Origin: an uncultured Desulfobacterales bacterium
GTDB lineage: Bacteria; Desulfobacterota; Desulfobacteria; Desulfobacterales; JAHEIW01
DNA length: 64,000 bases
Reading direction: 5' to 3'
Assembly (NCBI GenBank): GCA_947259495.1
Contig: CAMYLV010000005.1
Coordinates: forward strand, 55,401 to 119,400
In this document: positions 24,030 to 42,742 of the stretch, piece by piece
How the letters are laid out: each line of letters starts with the position of its first letter
Numbering within the stretch: position 1 is the first letter of the stretch
Program-made: the position numbers and the translations under genes
Notes under the pieces: generated by a model
Databases searched by the model: none
What the model saw: the letters and a program-made list of their open reading frames with translations, nothing else
What the model was told of the DNA's origin: nothing

Positions 24030-24287
24030 CCCTCCATCTTCAACCCGTCATATTACCAGAAGCGTTAAAAGTATTTTTCACTATTTTATCCGGTTTGTCA
24101 AAATCAGGCCGGCAAATCCAGGTTCGAAAATACCATTTTAATAATGATTGAGTATACTTAAGCCAATAATCGGAAAAAAATGGGAGCCGCGCGAAACTTT
24201 TTCATTACCGCAGTGTTTAACCCAGGTAAAGTCGAGGCCCGCCATATGAAAAATACACTAGCAAATATAAAAACGGAGGCTAAAAGC

Positions 24288-25169
24288 ATGAGAAAAAAAC
24301 TGTTAACGGCATTAACCGGGGTGACACTGTGTCTGGCTTTTGCATCAAACCCCAACCTTATTCTGGCTGAAGACGACGGCGCAGATTTACAGCCGGGAGT
24401 CTCTTTGCGGCAACGGGTCGACACCAATGGTGATGGCACCATCGATGCGGATGAAAAAGCGGCTTTCCGGAAACACTATTTAAAACGCTTTGATCGCAAT
24501 AATGACGGCAAACTTGATCGAAATGAAAGACGGCATGCACGCCGGCGGTTCGATCGCGCCGAAGATCGCTGGGACCGCCGGGAAGATAAATTCGACCGCC
24601 GCGAAGATCGCTGGGATCGTCGGGAAGACCGCTGGGACCGGCGCGAGGACGTGTGGGACCATCGTGAAGATCATCGGGATCGCCGGGAAGACGTGCGTGA
24701 CCGCCGGGAAGATGTCTGGGATCGCCGCGAAGACATTCGGGACCGCAAAGATGATCAATTAAAGGCCAATCGGCTCGGTAATTTAGAAGAGCGTCTGGCC
24801 AACACTGATGACCCGAAAGAAAAGGCAAGGCTTGAAAGACGCATCAACCATTTAAACAAGAATATTCGCAGAGATAAAGCCGAGGATCGCTGGGATCGTC
24901 GGGAGGATAAATACGATCGTCGCGAAGACCGCTGGGATAGCCGTGAAGATCGCTGGGATCGGCGCGAGGACGTGCGGGACCACCGTGAAGATCGACGGGA
25001 TCGCCGGGAAGATGTACGCGACCGCCGGGAAGATCGTCGGGACCGCAGAGAGGATTTCCGTGATCGCAGAGAAAATCGCCGGGACCGTAAAGAGGATGTC
25101 CGCGAATATCATAAAGATCGGCGGCAACACAGAAGGCATGCAACCCGCTCCGGGGGAGCAGGGAGCTAG
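24288..25169 (+). CDS. Secreted EF-hand protein with two blocks of D-R-R-E-D-x-x heptad repeats
   Basis: GGAGG SD before ATG 24288; signal peptide; DTNGDGTIDADE and DRNNDGKLDRNE; 10 + 11 heptads. Confidence 0.85.
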   Translation: MRKKLLTALTGVTLCLAFASNPNLILAEDDGADLQPGVSLRQRVDTNGDGTIDADEKAAFRKHYLKRFDRNNDGKLDRNERRHARRRFDRAEDRWDRREDKFDRREDRWDRREDRWDRREDVWDHREDHRDRREDVRDRREDVWDRREDIRDRKDDQLKANRLGNLEERLANTDDPKEKARLERRINHLNKNIRRDKAEDRWDRREDKYDRREDRWDSREDRWDRREDVRDHREDRRDRREDVRDRREDRRDRREDFRDRRENRRDRKEDVREYHKDRRQHRRHATRSGGAGS

Positions 25170-25407: not shown

Positions 25408-26793
25408 TTAAGCGGCTTCGGTCCGGCCTAAATCGATCTCCAAATTGACGCCGTATTTTTTTATCCGCTTCCAAACAGTCACCCGGCTGACACCTAATAT
25501 TCGCGCTGCTTCGGATTGATTACCGCCGACCTGACGCAGCGTATCAATCAGCTTTGTTCGTTCTTTTTCCCATGCCGCAGAGCTTTGCTGCCGTCGCATT
25601 TGAGGTCTTTTGCTGCCGGCTGTAATTTTGGGTGGCAGATGCTTCACGCCAATCCAATGCCCCGAACACAAAACAAACGCATATTCGATGGCGTTGCGCA
25701 ACTCGCGAACATTACCCGGCCAGGAATAGGTGAAAAGGGCCTCCATGGCTTCAGGCGTCAGACCGACGATTTTTTTACTGGATTTTGCGGCGTTTTGCTC
25801 AATAAAATTTTGGACGATAAGGTGGATATCATCGAGCCGCTCCGAAAGGGGCGGACATTTGAGGGGAAACACGTTGATGCGAAAAAACAGGTCTTCGCGA
25901 AATAATTCCTGGGCGATAAGGTCTTCGAGATCTTTGTTGGTGGCGGAGATAATCCGCACATCCACCGGGATCGGTTTGTGATCGCCGACTCTTTCGATTT
26001 CCTTTTCTTCCAGGACCCGCAAGAGCTTCACCTGGATACCCGGCGGTATATCGCCGATTTCATCTAAAAAGATGGTGCCTTCATGGGCGGCTTCGAAACG
26101 ACCGATGCGTGTCCGGTCAGCGCCCGTATAAGAGCCCTTTTCATGGCCGAAAAGTTCACTTTCCAGCAGGTTTTCATTCAGGGCAGCGCAATTTACTTTA
26201 ATAAACGGTTTGTCTTTACGGGGGCTGTCTTCATGAACGGCCCGGGCAACCAGCTCTTTACCGGTGCCGCTCTGGCCATGGATTAAAACCGGGGCATCTG
26301 TCTGGGCCACATTCTCGATGAGCTCAAAAAGGCGCTGCATCGTTAGTGATTCGCCCAGCAGTCCGTGGTGCTTGTCTTCAAGCCGACAGCTTTTGCGCAG
26401 GGTTAAAATTTCCTGCTCCTGACGCACGATTTCAGAGATGTCGGTTAGGGTTTCCACCGCACCGATCATCTGCCCGTCAGCATCTCTGAGCACGGTCGCA
26501 TTTTTGACAACATGCAAAGCGCGCCGGTCTTTTCTGGAGATCAAGCATTTCTTGGCGGTGACGATGCCTTTTTCATACAGGCTGCACCACTCCACACCGT
26601 AACCACGCCCGTACAGTTCGCAGCCGGTGCAATTCAAGATGGTGCAATTTTGACCGACCAATTCATCGGCTGAATAGCCCGTAAGCCTTTCAGCCGCAGG
26701 ATTCATTGCCAGAATATTACCCTCCGGATCAATTACCATGAGGCCGTCTTGTAATGTATCAACAATGGTTTTCCAGTGTTTACCTATTTCCAT
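25408..26793 (-). CDS. PAS-containing sigma54-dependent enhancer-binding protein (Fis HTH)
   Basis: Walker [24 protein letters not shown] (GAFTGA variant), [25 protein letters not shown]. Confidence 0.95.
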
Positions 26794-26981
26794 CAGCATG
26801 GGCTCCTCTGATGCAAAATTCGTGCGCTGATTAAATCAGGCGAAGCATTTATTTGTTAGAAAGCCGATAAAATCAAAAAAAATTGAATCCTGTTTGCATT
26901 CCGACTTACAGATTCAAACATTTAGCCGATTGCATCAATAATGTTGTTATATTCAAAAAGTATTAACCGCAATGCGTAAAT

Positions 26982-27030
26982 TGTTAACTCTGTTAACCTT
27001 TGATGTGTTAACTTAACAATCAATGTTAAC
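26982..27030. promoter_or_regulatory. Array of four TGTTAAC sites (candidate activator UAS, distal)
   Basis: Exact TGTTAAC at 26982, 26991, 27006 and 27024. Confidence 0.65.
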
Positions 27031-27366
27031 AATTGCAATGGCAAAAATGCTGCGAGTCGAATTATTCAGGTGTCTTTTTTGACAACACCCGTGTACGCCG
27101 TTTTTTATTTTAAGTATTTTATATTATTACTAATTTATTTATTGCGAAGGTTTTCGGGCGATACCCTTTGAGTTTTACAGCACCCACAGCCTTGAACAAG
27201 GAATATACTTCCACAACGGATAGCCACAAGCAATGGTATGAAAAGGTTGGAATTAAGAAATATCCTGTCGCCTCAGCGAGGCATAACCCAACGTTTTCGT
27301 GTGCTTTTGACCGTTCTGTTGCCTGTAAGACTGATGTTGGATAAGGCGCAAACGCCGTGTTTAAAG

Positions 27367-27396
27367 TGTTAACCTGTTAACTTGACACATGTTAAC
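27367..27396. promoter_or_regulatory. Array of three TGTTAAC sites (candidate UAS, proximal)
   Basis: Exact TGTTAAC at 27367, 27375 and 27390, about 95-120 bp upstream of the -24 box. Confidence 0.7.
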
Positions 27397-27488
27397 ACCA
27401 TCTTTCCCAAATTGCATTTCAAAAATGCTTAACAGAAAAATATATAAATATTTCAGTATATTAATATTTTACTGCAGCTGTGGCTAAT

Positions 27489-27504
27489 TGGCATGGGGTT
27501 TGCT
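27489..27504 (+). promoter_or_regulatory. sigma54 -24/-12 promoter
   Basis: TGGCAT-GGGGT-TTGCT with GG/GC at the canonical 12-bp offset, upstream of the operon and divergent from an EBP gene. Confidence 0.85.
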
Positions 27505-27621
27505 AATTTAACATAACCTGAATAATCGACATTCGAAAAGGTGTCCGCAGTAATTTGAAATTGGAATAAACCGTTTAACCCTATAAACCAAATTGATTGT
27601 ATCAAGCAGAAAGGAGAAATC

Positions 27622-27966
27622 ATGATTCGTAAAATAATTGTAACCACGATGGCCCTGTTTTTTGTGTTTTCAACATTGGGTATCAGTTTTGCTCTGGATA
27701 AAGGCAACAAGCGCAAAGGCAAATACACGTATCGCAAAGTCTACAAAGCGTGCTTTGAGCGCGGTGCCGTTGATTCTCAAACGCCGCCGATCAGCCCGGC
27801 CGATAAGTCCCAGGCCGAGTGGGAGGCTATTTTTACCAGCAAAGATTATACTCAGTTCGGATGTGAGGAAGAGTGGGGTAATCTGGATGGTACCCAGGTC
27901 ACGGATATCTACACCTATTTATACGAGCATGCGTCGGATTCACCCACGCCCGCCAAATGCAAGTAG
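27622..27966 (+). CDS. Small exported cytochrome-c-like protein lacking CXXCH
   Basis: Signal peptide; GNKRKGKY, ISPADKSQAEW and HASDSPTPAKCK pattern; YKACF where CXXCH is expected; AGGAG SD. Confidence 0.75.
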   Translation: MIRKIIVTTMALFFVFSTLGISFALDKGNKRKGKYTYRKVYKACFERGAVDSQTPPISPADKSQAEWEAIFTSKDYTQFGCEEEWGNLDGTQVTDIYTYLYEHASDSPTPAKCK

Positions 27967-28042
27967 AACCATACCAGATTCGATCAGAAAGCTGCAGAGG
28001 CACGTGTCTGGCAGCTAAATATAAACCCAAAAGGAGGAAATT

Positions 28043-29203
28043 ATGCGGATTAAAAGATTAACAGCCATATCCATGATGCTGTGCCTGATAATGGTGCTCG
28101 CGCTTGGATGTGCAACCACGAATTCGACTCCCGATACCGCCAAGACAGACAAAGCGGCGGACTGGAAGTTTCACAGCATCGTCGATGTCGACTTTGTCAT
28201 GAAACAGGTGAAGGTGCCGATGCCGGAAGATGTGATGATCATCGATGCCCGGCCCAAACGGGCCAAGTATGACAAAGGGCACATCCCCATGGCCGCCAGC
28301 ATTCCGGACAGCCAGTTTGATAAGATGACCGCCAAGCTGCCGGCGGATAAAGATGCGCTGCTCATTTTTTATTGCGGGGGGCCTACCTGAAAGCTGAGTC
28401 ACAAATCCGCCTGGAAGGCGGAAAAACTCGGTTATACCAACGTTAAAGTTTTTGCCAACGGATTCCCCGCATACATGAAAGTAGCCGGAAACTATCCGGC
28501 TGTGTCAGCAGATTGGGTCAAAAAACAGATCGATCAGAAAACCAATTTGGTGATGATCGATTCGCGTCCCAAGCGTAAAAAGTACGACAAAGGTCATATC
28601 CCAACGGCCCTGAGCATTCCGGACAGCCAGTTTGCTAAAATGCAGGACCAGCTGCCAGCGGATAAAAGCACCCCGCTGGTATTTTACTGCGGCGGGCTGA
28701 AGTGCCGCTTGAGTCACAAGTCCGCCAAAAAGGCCATCGATCTGGGTTACACCAAGGTCAAAGTATTTGCCGAAGGGTATCCGGCCTGGGTTGCAGCTTA
28801 TGGTAAAGGTGAGACAGCAACCGTGGCATCCGCCAATGCGGCTTCTTCAAATCAGCTCAAAGCTGGCAAGGAAGAAGGCAGTGTCGATACCGAAACGTTT
28901 AAAAAGATCGTCAAGGATAATCCTGATAGCATTATGCTGATCGATGTGCGCGATGCGGATGAATACACAGAAGGTTCCTTTAAAAGCGCTGTCAATATCC
29001 CGGTGGATCAACTCGAAGCTAAAATTAAAACGCTGCCGATCGATAAACCAATTGTGTTTGTCTGCGGCACCGGTGCGCGCAGCGGCGAATCTTATTATAT
29101 GGTACAGGATTTGAGACCCGAAATGAAAAATGTCTATTACCTGGAAGGGGAATTGACATTCAAACAAGATGGCTCTTTCGAGATCAAAGAGCCGGCATCC
29201 TGA
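28043..29203 (+). CDS. Triple rhodanese-domain lipoprotein, probable selenoprotein (Sec116)
   Basis: ORFs 28043-28390 and 28475-29203 are in the same frame. The TGA at 28388 aligns with the Cys of domain 2 (FYCGGPT*KLSHKSA vs FYCGGLKCRLSHKSA). Downstream hairpin; lipobox LGC. Confidence 0.88.
28396..28429 (+). promoter_or_regulatory. Bacterial SECIS-like hairpin
   Basis: GAGT..TCCGCC-TGGAA-GGCGGA..ACTC; upper stem starts 15 nt after the TGA; G in the apical loop. Confidence 0.7.
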
Positions 29204-29310
29204 TAGATGCGATTTCTATTTATTAGGTGCTGCAGCCGTTCCGGCAGGAACGGCTGCAGCCGAATCACCTGCTACTTTCTGATAGTGTCTACCGAGAGTT
29301 GGAGCGAAAA

Positions 29311-30954
29311 ATGGAAATAACGGAAAAGAAACATCCGCTTTTAATATACATCGTTTTATTCGCCTTTGGCCTGATGCTGATGCCAGCTATTGCTGCTGCG
29401 GCAGGGTCCAAAGATGAGCAGGCGCCGGGACGATCGATGGCCCAGCAGGCCACTAAATCCAAAAAGTTATGGCGGACCTCCGATCACGCCAAGCATAAAG
29501 TTCTGCAAAAAGATTTTGCATCCGGTGCCGAATTGACCCAGGCGTGCATCTCCTGCCATTCTGAGGCCGAAACCCAATTTCACAAGACCATTCACTGGAC
29601 GTGGCTGGCGGACCCGGCTGAAGAAAATAGACAATACGGGAAGGCCGGTAACTCACTCAACAATTTCTGTATCTCAACCAATAAAACGGTTGATGCAGGC
29701 TGCTTATCCTGCCATCCGGGCTGGGGCAACACCAAAGAAAGCGCGGTCAACTGCCTGGTCTGCCACAGCCAAACGAAAATGAACTTTGATGAAGCCATAA
29801 CCGACATCAAGGGATTTCTTGAAGAAGGCGATGATGAGTCCAAGGAGATAGCGCGCGAAATTCAGGCTGAGCTGCGTGACGCCGCCCAGAACCTCGGCCT
29901 GCCGGCGCGCCAAAATTGCGGTTCATGCCATTTTTTCGGCGGCGGCGGCGACGGTGTCAAGCACGGTGATCTGGATACATCTCTGGTCAAGCCCAGTAAA
30001 ACCCTGGATGTTCACATGGGGGTGGACGGCCAGAACTTCACCTGCACCCGCTGCCACACCACAACGCTGCACAATATTTCCGGACGTGTCTACACGCAAC
30101 CGGCGGCCACCGATCGCAAAAGTCTGGTGGAGGATGATCTGACCAACAAGATTACCTGTGAATCCTGCCATACGGACCAGCCCCACAAAAGCGGCCAGAA
30201 GATGAATGAGCACACCGACAAAGTGGCCTGCCAGAGTTGTCACATACCCGATTTTGCCAGGGTGAATCCCACCAAAATGTCCTGGGACTGGGCAAAGTCA
30301 GGCAAGTTAAAGGACGGCAAAAAATTTAAGACCAAAGACGAATTTGGTAAATTTGACTATATGTCCATCAAAGGCCAGATGAAGTGGGCCAAAAATGTTA
30401 AGCCTGAATATCACTGGTATAACGGTGTGATTAAATCCGTTACCGCCAGCGATAAGATCGATCCGGCCGGAACCGTAAAAGTTTCCTGGCCGGTGGGTGA
30501 TCGGCAAGATGCCAATTCGCGCATTTATCCGTTTAAGGTGCACATAGGAAATCAGCCGTATGATAAAATGCATCAGACCTTACTGATGCCGCTGCTTTCC
30601 GGCAAGCAGGGCTACTGGAACCACCTCGACTGGGACACAGCGCTGTCAGTCGGCCAGGCTTCCATGGATTTGCCGTTTTCGGGCGAATTTGATTTTGTCG
30701 AAACCGCCTACGTTTTTCCGATCACGCACATGGTAGCCCCCAAAGCTAAATCCCTGTCCTGCACGGAATGTCATTCCAAAACCGACAGCCGCCTGGCACA
30801 TCTGAAGGGCTTTTACATGCCCGGCCGTGATGTTTCCAAAATTCTCAACTTTGCCGGCTGGGGTGCGGTTCTGGCCAGTTTGATCGGAGTCCTCATTCAT
30901 GCGCTGGGGCGGTTCTTGAGCAGAGGTAATGGCAAGAACAGAAAGGAAGATTAG
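29311..30954 (+). CDS. Octaheme c-type cytochrome (octaheme tetrathionate reductase family)
   Basis: Eight CXXCH motifs: CISCH, CLSCH, CLVCH, CGSCH, CTRCH, CESCH, CQSCH, CTECH; signal peptide and C-terminal TM. Confidence 0.9.
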   Translation: MEITEKKHPLLIYIVLFAFGLMLMPAIAAAAGSKDEQAPGRSMAQQATKSKKLWRTSDHAKHKVLQKDFASGAELTQACISCHSEAETQFHKTIHWTWLADPAEENRQYGKAGNSLNNFCISTNKTVDAGCLSCHPGWGNTKESAVNCLVCHSQTKMNFDEAITDIKGFLEEGDDESKEIAREIQAELRDAAQNLGLPARQNCGSCHFFGGGGDGVKHGDLDTSLVKPSKTLDVHMGVDGQNFTCTRCHTTTLHNISGRVYTQPAATDRKSLVEDDLTNKITCESCHTDQPHKSGQKMNEHTDKVACQSCHIPDFARVNPTKMSWDWAKSGKLKDGKKFKTKDEFGKFDYMSIKGQMKWAKNVKPEYHWYNGVIKSVTASDKIDPAGTVKVSWPVGDRQDANSRIYPFKVHIGNQPYDKMHQTLLMPLLSGKQGYWNHLDWDTALSVGQASMDLPFSGEFDFVETAYVFPITHMVAPKAKSLSCTECHSKTDSRLAHLKGFYMPGRDVSKILNFAGWGAVLASLIGVLIHALGRFLSRGNGKNRKED

Positions 30955-30957
30955 AGC

Positions 30958-31623
30958 ATGACTATCAACAACGGAAAAATGAAAAATATATATCTCTATG
31001 CGCGCTTTGAACGGCTGTGGCATTGGTTGCAGACGTTGCTGATCATCATCCTTTTGCTGACGGGTTTTGAGGTCAATGGTGCCTTTACGCTTTTCGGTTT
31101 CAGGACGGCGGTGGAGGTACATAATTTTGTCGGACTGACCTGGCTGATAGCGTTCGCCTTTTTTGTTTTCTGGATTTTCACCACCGGTGAGTGGCGACAA
31201 TACATCCCGACCACCAAAAAGATGATCTCGGTTGTACGCTATTACATGTACGGCATTTTTCGGGGTGAGCTCCATCCGGTGCCCAAGCGCAAAGAGGCCA
31301 AGCACAACCCGCTGCAGCGTATCGTTTACCTGATTCTGGCGGCCATATTGCTGCCGGTGCAAATGGTCACCGGATTTTTGTACTGGGGCTATAATTCCTG
31401 GGGCGATTGGGGGCTGTCCTGGCTGTCTTTGCAGGTCGTGGCGCTGATTCACATCGCCGGTGCTTTTGCCATCCTGTCTTTTGTGGTTGTGCATGTGTAC
31501 ATGATCACAACCGGGCACACCATATTTGCCCACACCCGGGCAATGATCACGGGCTGGGAAGAAGTAGCGGATGAAGCATCCGTGGGCGACTGGGAATATA
31601 AAACCAAAGCCAAAACGGCATAG
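30958..31623 (+). CDS. Cytochrome b/b6-domain membrane subunit (PhsC-like)
   Basis: FERLWHW, VEVHNF, KHNPLQRIVY, LIH, HVYM (heme-b His pairs). Confidence 0.9.
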   Translation: MTINNGKMKNIYLYARFERLWHWLQTLLIIILLLTGFEVNGAFTLFGFRTAVEVHNFVGLTWLIAFAFFVFWIFTTGEWRQYIPTTKKMISVVRYYMYGIFRGELHPVPKRKEAKHNPLQRIVYLILAAILLPVQMVTGFLYWGYNSWGDWGLSWLSLQVVALIHIAGAFAILSFVVVHVYMITTGHTIFAHTRAMITGWEEVADEASVGDWEYKTKAKTA

Positions 31624-31698
31624 GCCTTTGATTTTTCGGCATTGATGGCTTAAAATCACCCCTGTCCGTGAATGCCAGTGCCCTGTTGAACTAACACC

Positions 31699-31728
31699 AA
31701 AGGGGGCCTGAATACAGGCCCCTTTTTT
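31699..31728 (+). terminator. Intrinsic terminator of the sulfur-redox operon
   Basis: AAAGGGGGCCTG-AATA-CAGGCCCCTTTTTT. Confidence 0.8.
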
Positions 31729-31889
31729 ACCTCTTTTAAAGGATCTCGCCGATCAGAACCGCTCGGCCGGCGCTGATATGACGATTAAACAAATTGCCCG
31801 GCAAAACGAGATGGCACCGGCGGATGTGTATGCCCTGGTGCGCAGGATAGCGACAGGTCCCGCACATAAACAGTGACCGGCCTTTAGAT

Positions 31890-33350
31890 CTACAAAAGCT
31901 TCACCACCACAAGGGTAATATCATCTTCCTGGGGGGCCTCTCCCTGAAAAACCGTGAGATCCGCGATAATACGACTCTTTATCTCCTCGGCAGATCTGGC
32001 GGCATGCCTGCGGATCGCTTCGCGGAACCGATTTAAGCCGAACATCTCGCCGCTTTCATTTTGAGTTTCACGGATGCCGTCCGTACCCACGACCACAACG
32101 CTGCCCGGCGTCCAACCCTTGTGGTTATATTTTTGATATTTCAGGTCTTCAACCACCCCCATGGCCATGCCTTCTCCGGCAAGCTCCAAGAAGATATCAT
32201 CTTCAGCATTGTAGAGGATTGCCGGCTCGTGACCGGCCCGGACCCAGCTCAATATGTTCGTTTTAGATTCGATTTTCAGAAAGAACATCGTCATGAATCG
32301 ACCGCTGCTCGCAACATCTCTGGCCAGCTCCGCGTTGACCTCTGAGACAATGCGGGCGATGTCGGTTTCCATCGTCACCCTTTGTCTGAGTAGTGCCCGC
32401 ACCGTGGTCATAAGCAGGGCTGCGCTCACACCATGTTCGGAAGCGTCTGCCACCACCACCCCTAAGTCGCCGTTTGTCAGTCTAAAGTAATCGTAATAGT
32501 CTCCGCCGGTTTCATCGCAGTAGTTACTGATACCGGCGATATCGAGTCCGGGCAACAAGGGCGGCTTAGCGGGCAAGAGATTTTGTTGCACCTCTTCGGC
32601 TAACTTTAAGGCGGTTATGAGCTGAAGGCGATGTCTGAGTCCGTTTATCATTGTATTAGTGTGACCGGCGATAACCCCGAACTCATCATTGGTGGCGACC
32701 GGGACCAATCTGGAAAGATCCCCCTGGGTGACCTTCTCAAGCACGCCGGTTTCATTCTGGAACAGTAATTTCAAATTTTTGGAATATGAAACGATCAAAT
32801 TTACAATTGCTGCTAACAGCACAACCATCACAAAAAAGACTTCACGCATAACGGACAATTGTGCTTGGGTAAGAGATATATCGCTCTCTTGAATCTTTGA
32901 GAGCCAGACCACATCTCTGGCAATTACAAGTCCGAGGACCATAGAAACGAACAGGATGGTGATCAGCGCCACCAGGGAAAATTTTCGCGTTATTGAATAT
33001 AGACGCTTGGGCGGTGGGAGCGCCCTGTTTTCCGACAGGGTGTCCTGGATGACGGTGCGCTCACGGGCCAGGGCCATATCTAAACCCAGGAAGAAGCCGA
33101 CAACGGCGCAACCCAATAGTAAGCTCAATCCACTGGTGGCCGGAAAGCCGTAGGCCAGGGTGTTGTATATAACCACGACTGAGCCGGCTGCCATGCACAA
33201 GGCTAATTCAAGAAAAAACTGTTTTCGGGGCTGGACAATCAACGGTCGGGAGACGACCAGGCGGCTCTCAAGGAACCGGTGCAGCGCCAGCGCCACCATG
33301 AAAGGAATCAGAAGGCTTACCCCCAGGAGCACGGGGGGCATTGTTTCCAT
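31890..33350 (-). CDS. Membrane HAMP + PP2C/SpoIIE-type protein phosphatase
   Basis: Several TMs, HAMP (NDEFGVIA), GGDYYD, VADASEHGVSAAL, GTDGI, DDITLVV. Confidence 0.92.
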   Translation of the reverse strand: METMPPVLLGVSLLIPFMVALALHRFLESRLVVSRPLIVQPRKQFFLELALCMAAGSVVVIYNTLAYGFPATSGLSLLLGCAVVGFFLGLDMALARERTVIQDTLSENRALPPPKRLYSITRKFSLVALITILFVSMVLGLVIARDVVWLSKIQESDISLTQAQLSVMREVFFVMVVLLAAIVNLIVSYSKNLKLLFQNETGVLEKVTQGDLSRLVPVATNDEFGVIAGHTNTMINGLRHRLQLITALKLAEEVQQNLLPAKPPLLPGLDIAGISNYCDETGGDYYDYFRLTNGDLGVVVADASEHGVSAALLMTTVRALLRQRVTMETDIARIVSEVNAELARDVASSGRFMTMFFLKIESKTNILSWVRAGHEPAILYNAEDDIFLELAGEGMAMGVVEDLKYQKYNHKGWTPGSVVVVGTDGIRETQNESGEMFGLNRFREAIRRHAARSAEEIKSRIIADLTVFQGEAPQEDDITLVVVKLL

Positions 33351-42480: not shown

Positions 42481-42742
42481 GCAAATTGCAAAAAATATGC
42501 CATCAGCATGTATTTATATTTATGTATATATATCGATAGGTTAAAAAAATATAAAATTTTTAAAATTTTATAATTGGGTAATCAATGCCACAGTTTTATC
42601 ACTTAAATTACATAACATTAGGACTTAGATGCCAGGACATTTGATATTTAGCAACTATGGCGTTGTCAATCTTTACGCCATTTTGTTAAATTATTGTCTA
42701 ATTATTTTTGACAACCTATCCACCCTATGTTATGTTCCTGCC

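Follow-up and report, generated by a model that had tools for sequence, protein, structure and literature searches.

A sigma-54-controlled operon of Desulfobacterales that places a selenocysteine-containing triple rhodanese beside an OTR-family octaheme cytochrome

Introduction

What chemistry is carried out by an octaheme cytochrome c of the OTR family when it is encoded beside a rhodanese whose reading frame runs through a UGA codon? This question is raised by an operon in a stretch of 64,000 nucleotides, here called the window, from an uncultured Desulfobacterales bacterium (contig CAMYLV010000005.1 of assembly GCA_947259495.1, positions 55,401 to 119,400). In this operon a small secreted protein, a triple-rhodanese lipoprotein, an OTR-family cytochrome and a membrane cytochrome b are encoded behind a sigma-54 promoter, with the gene of a sigma-54 enhancer-binding protein (EBP) divergent from them. 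A first-pass annotation of the DNA had listed these parts and proposed a periplasmic sulfur-respiring unit, and every part was found where it had put them or close by. The genome encodes rpoN and dsrA, which makes the host, a sediment bacterium, a sulfate or sulfite reducer that uses sigma-54.

The reading that we lean towards, with a confidence only somewhat better than even, is that the operon encodes a sigma-54-controlled, quinol-fed periplasmic reductase of sulfane sulfur (polysulfide- or S0-derived, possibly tetrathionate or thiosulfate) served by a Sud-like carrier. Which substrate it uses, which way its electrons flow and what the small protein and the selenocysteine do are inferences from the evidence set out below.

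Results

An operon conserved across Desulfobacterales

Conservation of the operon, which the first-pass annotation had named as a check on its reading, was found in about 60 of 80 Desulfobacterales loci, where a divergent EBP gene accompanies the order small protein, rhodanese, OTR and cytochrome b. This layout includes the cultured Desulfosarcina widdelii PP31, D. variabilis and Desulfocicer vacuolatum, and related loci are also present in the Olavius Delta1 and Delta4 symbionts. The rhodanese is first or last in the gene order in some Desulfobacteraceae, and families elsewhere in the phylum have these genes side by side in another arrangement, together with a haem-bearing small protein. Three loci of another phylum family (L159, L160 and L162, in genomes G330, G059 and G354) have the OTR domain in an open frame of ~1100 aa, a fusion after which come a small cytochrome with CXXCH and a triple rhodanese, also in a different gene order.

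Sequence evidence that the triple rhodanese is a selenoprotein

The second gene encodes three rhodanese domains, the first of which contains the in-frame UGA, read here as selenocysteine (Sec) at position 116. The active-site loops are C111-GGPT-U116-KLSHKS in domain 1, C216-GGLK-C221-RLSHKS in domain 2 and C341-GTGARS in domain 3, and after read-through domains 1 and 2 are 60% identical. In 80 related loci fetched from species genomes, from which the codon comparison was drawn, about 49 orthologues have TGC or TGT opposite the UGA and 16 have TGA. At the matching position of domain 2, nine loci have TGA, and the codon of the domain-3 catalytic Cys is TGA in none. A quick maximum-likelihood tree of the rhodanese requires at least five switches between Sec and Cys, including within the window's own six-member clade.

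Each TGA site is accompanied by a hairpin of the selenocysteine insertion sequence (SECIS) type. In the window its apical stem, CCGCC-UGGAA-GGCGG, lies 18 nt after the UGA and the fold has a dG of -19.2 kcal/mol (z -3.25). One and the same hairpin (TCCGCC-NGGAA-GGCGGA) is found at 26 of 26 TGA sites, 17 of them in domain 1 (16 relatives and the window) and nine in domain 2, and the hairpins at TGA sites are more stable than those at Cys sites (p 2.6e-4 and 1.2e-3). The element also constrains the encoded residues, which read S-A-[R/W]-K-A-E, with a Thr preceding Sec. The genome encodes selA, selB, selD and the tRNA for selenocysteine (selC), and selD (G000:C2:224486-225409) has an in-frame TGA of its own, so SelD is itself a selenoprotein.

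On the combined evidence of read-through, Cys alignment, SECIS and Sec machinery, the rhodanese is a genuine selenoprotein, as the first-pass annotation had proposed. Were the UGA a true stop, the locus would hold either a decaying gene or a pair of genes for products of 115 aa and 242 aa, and the module would reduce to small protein, OTR and cytochrome b; open reading frame calling with Table 11 does split the rhodanese at 28390, and some relatives are without any rhodanese, but we regard this as hardly credible against a continuous frame that would be cut within a domain in mid-loop, TGA aligned with Cys codons, an identical SECIS at every TGA site, a full Sec machinery, and a domain boundary with neither start codon nor ribosome-binding site.

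Selenocysteine does not take the place of the canonical catalytic Cys (C111, 'FYC'). C111, C216 and C341 align with one another in the domain alignment and are invariant among orthologues; the canonical rhodanese Cys of domain 1 is C111, the counterpart of C341 in domain 3, which is classical. Sec116 lies five residues downstream of it, in a loop two residues longer that reads C-x4-U (C-x4-C in domain 2).

A lipobox is present in most rhodanese orthologues. Several close relatives (L020, L024-L027 and similar) have Tyr in place of the lipobox Cys (LVLGYATT), so that the rhodanese there would be soluble in the periplasm and not lipid-anchored.

Three named rhodanese families were tried and rejected: TsoB (NF045694; 115.1 against a cut-off of 805), ExtH (NF040901; 27.7 bits against 200, a weak N-terminal match) and the LYCAU seleno-rhodanese (NF041203; 87.3 against 115). 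A selenoproteome catalogue lists a Sec rhodanese 'form 1, UxxS' (PF00581), given without operon context or function (PMC13188914). Compared by motif alone, U-K-L-S in the rhodanese domain of the window fits UxxS, and the selenoprotein family itself is therefore already known (PMC13188914).

The OTR-family cytochrome and its membrane partner

Assignment of the octaheme cytochrome to the OTR family held: the protein scores 528.6 bits against TIGR04315 (cut-off 375) and matches the Shewanella oneidensis OTR structure 1SP3 at 1.7e-106. The eight CXXCH motifs and a GK...NNFC motif occur in the window and in 79/79 orthologues. G-K111-A-G-N-S-L-N-N-F-C120 aligns to G-K56-K-N-S-I-N-N-F-C64 of 1SP3 with a one-residue indel, and by this alignment Lys111 and Cys120 are equivalent to the active-site Lys56 and Cys64. 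The gene has no in-frame stop, and the C-terminal hydrophobic helix is conserved among orthologues. A start at GTG 29227 was rejected in favour of the conserved ATG at 29311, which has a GGAG ribosome-binding site. The Shewanella protein shares the eight CXXCH and the Lys/Cys pair with that of the window; it is soluble, however, whereas the window OTR has a membrane helix, an adjacent cytochrome b and a place in a sigma-54-controlled operon with a triple rhodanese and the former cytochrome described below.

The membrane protein that follows was likewise rightly called a cytochrome b (PF01292). Its best specific match is the PhsC equivalog, though at 107.7 bits against a cut-off of 204 (NF011582) it is not assigned to it. 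The gene is directly downstream of OTR in most related loci, and its product is presumed to act as quinol oxidase or as anchor.

Selenocysteine in OTR paralogues

We surveyed an even sample of 401 Desulfobacterota genomes, 61 of which encode an OTR above the family cut-off, and fetched 67 OTR loci (L112-L178). In 28 of the 67 genes one in-frame TGA lies exactly at the Cys of N-N-F-C, the equivalent of Cys64 in 1SP3 (for example L112:4842-6497), and a quick OTR tree places at least five switches between Sec and Cys at this site. OTR has also been listed as a GenBank-annotated selenoprotein (PMC13188914).

Most of the Sec-OTR loci consist of OTR(Sec) and cytochrome b (Pfam check on L112), and neither the small protein nor a rhodanese domain was found within 4.5 kb in any of the 28. 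The pattern is that the small protein (10 sample loci) and the triple rhodanese (4 sample loci and about 60 of Desulfobacterales) occur only beside Cys-type OTRs, in three separate clades. Stand-alone Sec-OTR loci thus resemble the window in the OTR family, in the PhsC-like cytochrome b directly downstream and, in some cases, in a related EBP; they differ in having Sec at the Cys64 position and neither accessory gene, whereas the window type has Cys and both.

Residues at which Cys and Sec replace each other nearly always have a redox or nucleophilic part in catalysis. That they do so in the active site of OTR speaks for chalcogen-bond (S-S) chemistry and against a reduction of nitrite.

A small protein that was probably once a cytochrome c

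The first gene of the operon had been described as a cytochrome without haem motif. Loss of the motif was confirmed, and the description can be refined: the protein still holds the second Cys of the lost CXXCH (C44). At this site it reads Y41-K-A-C44-F45, and within the clade the His position is F, Y, M, H, S or A. In an exhaustive profile search, most of the more distant relatives have CXXCH exactly where the window's clade reads Y-K-A-C-[F/M/H/Y/S/A]; orthologues elsewhere read CR[ST]CH. Haem-motif-bearing forms hold the same operon position in other phylum families, beside the EBP, rhodanese or OTR gene (L099, L101, L102, L103). Other residues of the alignment are invariant, namely G-N-x-R-K-G-K-Y-x-Y-R-K-V, C44, C81 and the C-terminal D-S-P-x-P-x-x-C-K (C113).

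The protein gave zero matches in Pfam or NCBIfam, and Foldseek with its AF2 model (pLDDT 84) gave no match in the PDB at E<=0.001. Nearly all top structural matches are c-type cytochromes, though Z values are low and the likeness to class I c-type cytochromes is weak (best Z 5.5, to the dihaem cytochrome 2fwt, with rmsd 2.9 and 63 aligned), and Atlas neighbours carry PF13442 and PF00034. Judged by the aligned motif site, the protein is most likely an ex-cytochrome c that lost its haem motif in this lineage, and database entries called, for instance, 'periplasmic monoheme cytochrome c' are therefore misleading. Some motif-less small proteins (L040, L059, L061, L092 and L110) read Y-K-x-C-H, with a single Cys and the His, and may represent either a stage in between or a haem site with only one thioether.

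Locus architecture and regulation

The layout of the locus (Table 1) bears out the regulatory elements of the first-pass annotation: a divergent Cys-rich EBP, arrays resembling upstream activating sequences (UAS), a canonical -24/-12 promoter, four co-oriented genes and a terminator, the last a GC-rich hairpin with T6 that ends the operon.

Table 1 Features of the operon and its control region in the window
Feature	Position	Strand	Description
Sigma-54 EBP	25408-26799	-	463 aa; PAS, AAA+ (Walker A GQSGTGK, GSYTGA loop), lid, Fis-type helix-turn-helix (HTH)
Distal TGTTAAC cluster	26982-27031		core GTTAAC self-palindromic; 183-232 bp upstream of EBP start
Proximal TGTTAAC cluster	27367-27397		GTGTTAAC ... 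GTTAACAC; ~100 bp upstream of -24/-12 promoter; candidate UAS
Sigma-54 promoter	27489-27504	+	TGGCATGGGGTTTGCT (TGGCAT-N5-TTGCT); exact consensus match
Secreted small protein	27622-27966	+	114 aa; CXXCH degraded to Y41-K-A-C44-F45; C-terminal DSPTPAKCK
Triple-rhodanese lipoprotein selenoprotein	28043-29203	+	386 aa; lipobox LALGC, Cys23; PF00581 x3, 1.2e-46
In-frame UGA (Sec116)	28388-28390	+	within first rhodanese domain
SECIS-type hairpin	28392-28433	+	apical stem CCGCC-UGGAA-GGCGG, 18 nt after UGA
OTR-family octaheme cytochrome c	29311-30954	+	547 aa; 8 CXXCH, N-terminal signal, C-terminal transmembrane helix
Di-haem-type membrane cytochrome b, PhsC-like	30958-31623	+	221 aa; PF01292 at 3.8e-29
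Intrinsic terminator	31703-31728	+	GGGGCCTG-AATA-CAGGCCCC; 8-bp GC stem, AATA loop, T6; between convergent genes

Counted over the full window, nine of 11 TGTTAAC copies lie in two clusters inside the 822-bp AT-rich intergenic spacer, and TGGCAY-N5-TTGCW is matched exactly just twice, by the promoter and by TGGCATATTTTTTGCA at 42487-42502 (-). Among 73 related loci, about 45 have an exact -24/-12 element ahead of the small gene, 54-203 nt (mostly 90-150) from its start codon. Most promoter-bearing related loci have GTTAAC about 100 nt upstream of the promoter, and GTTAAC clusters lie at equivalent distances in close relatives. An ORF of 58 aa between the two clusters (27168-27344) found no support in searches and is treated as non-coding, and Rfam matched zero known RNAs across 26700-31900.

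The EBP matches PF00158 at 4e-73 as well as PF25601, PF00989 and PF02954, and its gene is divergent from the operon in most related loci. Five Cys of its PAS domain (C52, C57, C60, C72 and C85) are invariant in 46/46 orthologues. Assignment to PrdR, NifA, NorR or similar equivalogs was rejected, every score being below cut-off. A known counterpart is OrpR of Desulfovibrio vulgaris, a sigma-54 activator with a [4Fe-4S] PAS domain (PMC8359166), which resembles the EBP in its PAS-AAA+-HTH order, conserved PAS Cys from C52 onward, divergence from the target operon and palindromic UAS. OrpR, however, has three conserved Cys (52, 61 and 65) in place of five, and its DNA motif and regulon differ. Sulfide sensing through an Fe-S PAS domain has been described for NreB (PMC13478379).

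Within the 107 nt that separate the stop codon of the rhodanese from the start of OTR lies a perfect 13-bp inverted repeat, CTGCAGCCGTTCC-GGCA-GGAACGGCTGCAG (29229-29260), with no T-run; it may be an element of mRNA processing or stability, or of translational coupling. Convergent to the operon lies a gene for a MASE10-HAMP-PP2C (SpoIIE-type) membrane phosphatase (31890-33350, -), which adjoins the operon only in its two closest relatives (L018 and L019) and is therefore not counted as part of it. A secreted EF-hand protein with long D-R-R-E-D-type heptad repeats is encoded just upstream of the EBP (24180-25169) and is not conserved with the operon.

Discussion

Two known systems frame the function of the operon. 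In Wolinella succinogenes, Sud is a periplasmic rhodanese-fold polysulfide-sulfur transferase that feeds polysulfide reductase (Psr). Sud-Psr and the operon, as we read it, have in common a periplasmic rhodanese-type carrier that brings sulfane sulfur to a quinol-linked reductase; they differ in that Psr is a molybdoenzyme and Sud is soluble, single-domain and Cys-only.

The other system is MccSep of Geobacter, a polysulfide reductase with both Sec and haem, which clusters with the rhodanese lipoprotein ExtH (PMC13510729). In Geobacter sulfurreducens this pair, like the operon in our reading, combines a multihaem cytochrome, Sec and a rhodanese lipoprotein for periplasmic S-S reduction, with a Cys by the catalytic haem (PMC13510729, PMC5877670). 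MccSep is, however, a pentaheme cytochrome with a His/Cys haem and Sec in the cytochrome, whereas the operon has an octaheme OTR, in which Cys accompanies a haem presumed to be Lys-ligated, and Sec sits on the rhodanese. Membership in the MccSep type was rejected, as the window cytochrome is an octaheme protein without in-frame stop; the likeness is functional only.

Taken with the PhsC-like quinol module, the rhodanese lipoprotein and the MccSep precedent (PMC13510729) make a sulfane-sulfur reductase the best-supported reading. As to the sulfur respiration proposed by the first-pass annotation, its parts and its regulatory reading stood and are conserved across genomes, and its sulfur element is strengthened by the link to the rhodanese, by Sec/Cys switching in the rhodanese loops and by Sec at the active-site Cys of many OTR paralogues; its choice among thiosulfate, tetrathionate, polysulfide and disproportionation goes by inference only.

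Several points weigh against a sulfane-sulfur reductase. About nine related loci lack the rhodanese yet keep small protein, OTR and cytochrome b, and the clade L028-L034 has no adjacent cytochrome b or EBP gene while retaining the sigma-54 promoter, so these genes are not strictly required in cis. Menaquinol is thermodynamically a poor donor for the reduction of polysulfide or thiosulfate unless the reaction is coupled to the proton motive force. What we propose for the ex-cytochrome is a guess, and because the sampled genomes are related, the split between Sec-OTRs and accessory genes is a pattern and not statistical proof. Deletion of otr in Shewanella ANA-3 gave no tetrathionate phenotype, and sulfite was proposed as substrate instead (PMC12949373). 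In vitro, the reduction of nitrite and hydroxylamine by the purified Shewanella enzyme is much faster than that of tetrathionate, as cited in two reports (PMC12949373, PMC5276818).

A more specific mechanism, which we hold only tentatively and think unlikely, is a 'split' selenium-haem S-S reductase. Stand-alone OTRs would have the catalytic chalcogen nucleophile, Sec at the Cys64 position, in the cytochrome itself; in the window's operon type the OTR has Cys only, the nucleophilic step would have moved to the C-x4-U/C loops of the membrane-tethered rhodanese, and the ex-cytochrome would serve as thiol relay, handing on sulfur or a mixed Se-S/S-S bond to the haem by way of Cys44, left over from haem binding, and/or the C-terminal Cys113. 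Were it true, OTR enzymes would physiologically be reductases of protein persulfide or polysulfide, and not of tetrathionate or nitrite.

Electrons might also flow the other way, with sulfide, polysulfide or thiosulfate oxidized in a TsdA- or Sox-like manner into the quinone pool, for example in disproportionation or in sulfur-cycling gutless-worm symbioses. Multihaem cytochromes are often reversible, rhodaneses act in sulfur oxidation too, the Olavius Delta1 and Delta4 symbionts have related loci, and disproportionation was among the options of the first-pass annotation. We nevertheless consider this direction distinctly improbable: the operon has no partners of the Sox, Fcc or SQR type, cytochromes b of the PhsC type have been described from reductases (NF011582), and the closest selenium-haem precedent, MccSep, is reductive (PMC13510729).

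The kinetic preference of the Shewanella enzyme for nitrite and hydroxylamine (cited in PMC12949373, PMC5276818) would fit a detoxification of nitrite, hydroxylamine or NO stress, with an NrfA-like ammonifying OTR fed by cytochrome b, a Cys-rich PAS domain that senses NO or redox state (Fe-S PAS sensors do respond to oxidants; PMC8359166) and a rhodanese that is incidental. Such a role leaves unexplained, however, the conserved triple rhodanese with its Sec/Cys loops. Nor does it account for the frequent Sec at the OTR active site, because haem nitrite reduction needs no chalcogen nucleophile, and we give it a similarly small chance.

Poorer still are the prospects of a reduction of Se or Te oxyanions or of selenium trafficking, with an ExtH-like rhodanese handling selenite-derived Se and the OTR reducing it: ExtH, ExtI and MccSep have been implicated in selenite reduction (PMC5877670, PMC13510729) and the rhodanese has its weak N-terminal match to ExtH (NF040901), but that score is far below the cut-off, most rhodanese orthologues are all-Cys, and the operon is common among sulfate reducers of the sea, whose surroundings hold vastly more sulfur species than selenium.

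Under the sulfane-sulfur reductase that we favour, the operon could work in five steps, the last four of which draw on family knowledge and gene context. First, the EBP would sense redox state or sulfide/sulfane through its Cys-ligated, probably Fe-S, PAS domain, bind the TGTTAACA palindromes and open the -24/-12 promoter. Second, the membrane-tethered triple rhodanese would capture sulfur, the low-pKa selenolate of Sec116 attacking an S-S bond, with Cys111, five residues upstream, as the resolving or relay thiol. Third, the sulfur would be handed on, perhaps by the ex-cytochrome with its one free Cys, Cys44, to the active-site Cys120 of OTR beside the presumably Lys-ligated haem, where, fourth, it would be reduced to sulfide. 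Fifth, menaquinol would supply the electrons by way of the PhsC-like cytochrome b, against which the C-terminal membrane helix would hold the OTR.

Each part of the operon is from a known family, and Sec-rhodaneses and Sec-OTRs are already catalogued. The operon as such was not described in the literature searched on OTR with rhodanese, Desulfosarcina, Desulfobacterales or Olavius, and the searchable literature holds no description of the haem loss of the small subunit, of the Sec position in OTR or of the either/or placement of selenium. Two annotation errors recur in this setting, the rhodanese being split at the UGA and the motif-less small protein being named 'monoheme cytochrome c'.

The natural substrate of OTR has been in question since the structure of 2004, and a genetic study of 2026 found no tetrathionate phenotype (PMC12949373). 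As far as sequence can tell, the operon supplies OTR with a fixed set of partners, comprising a cytochrome b on the quinol side, a rhodanese as Sec/Cys carrier, a cytochrome relic without haem and a dedicated activator that would sense redox state or sulfur, and this set occurs in sulfate reducers that can be cultivated (Desulfosarcina widdelii, D. variabilis and Desulfocicer vacuolatum). Together with two patterns, the replacement of the active-site Cys by Sec in many paralogues and the placement of selenium in either the enzyme or the carrier, this makes the question of what OTR does experimentally tractable.

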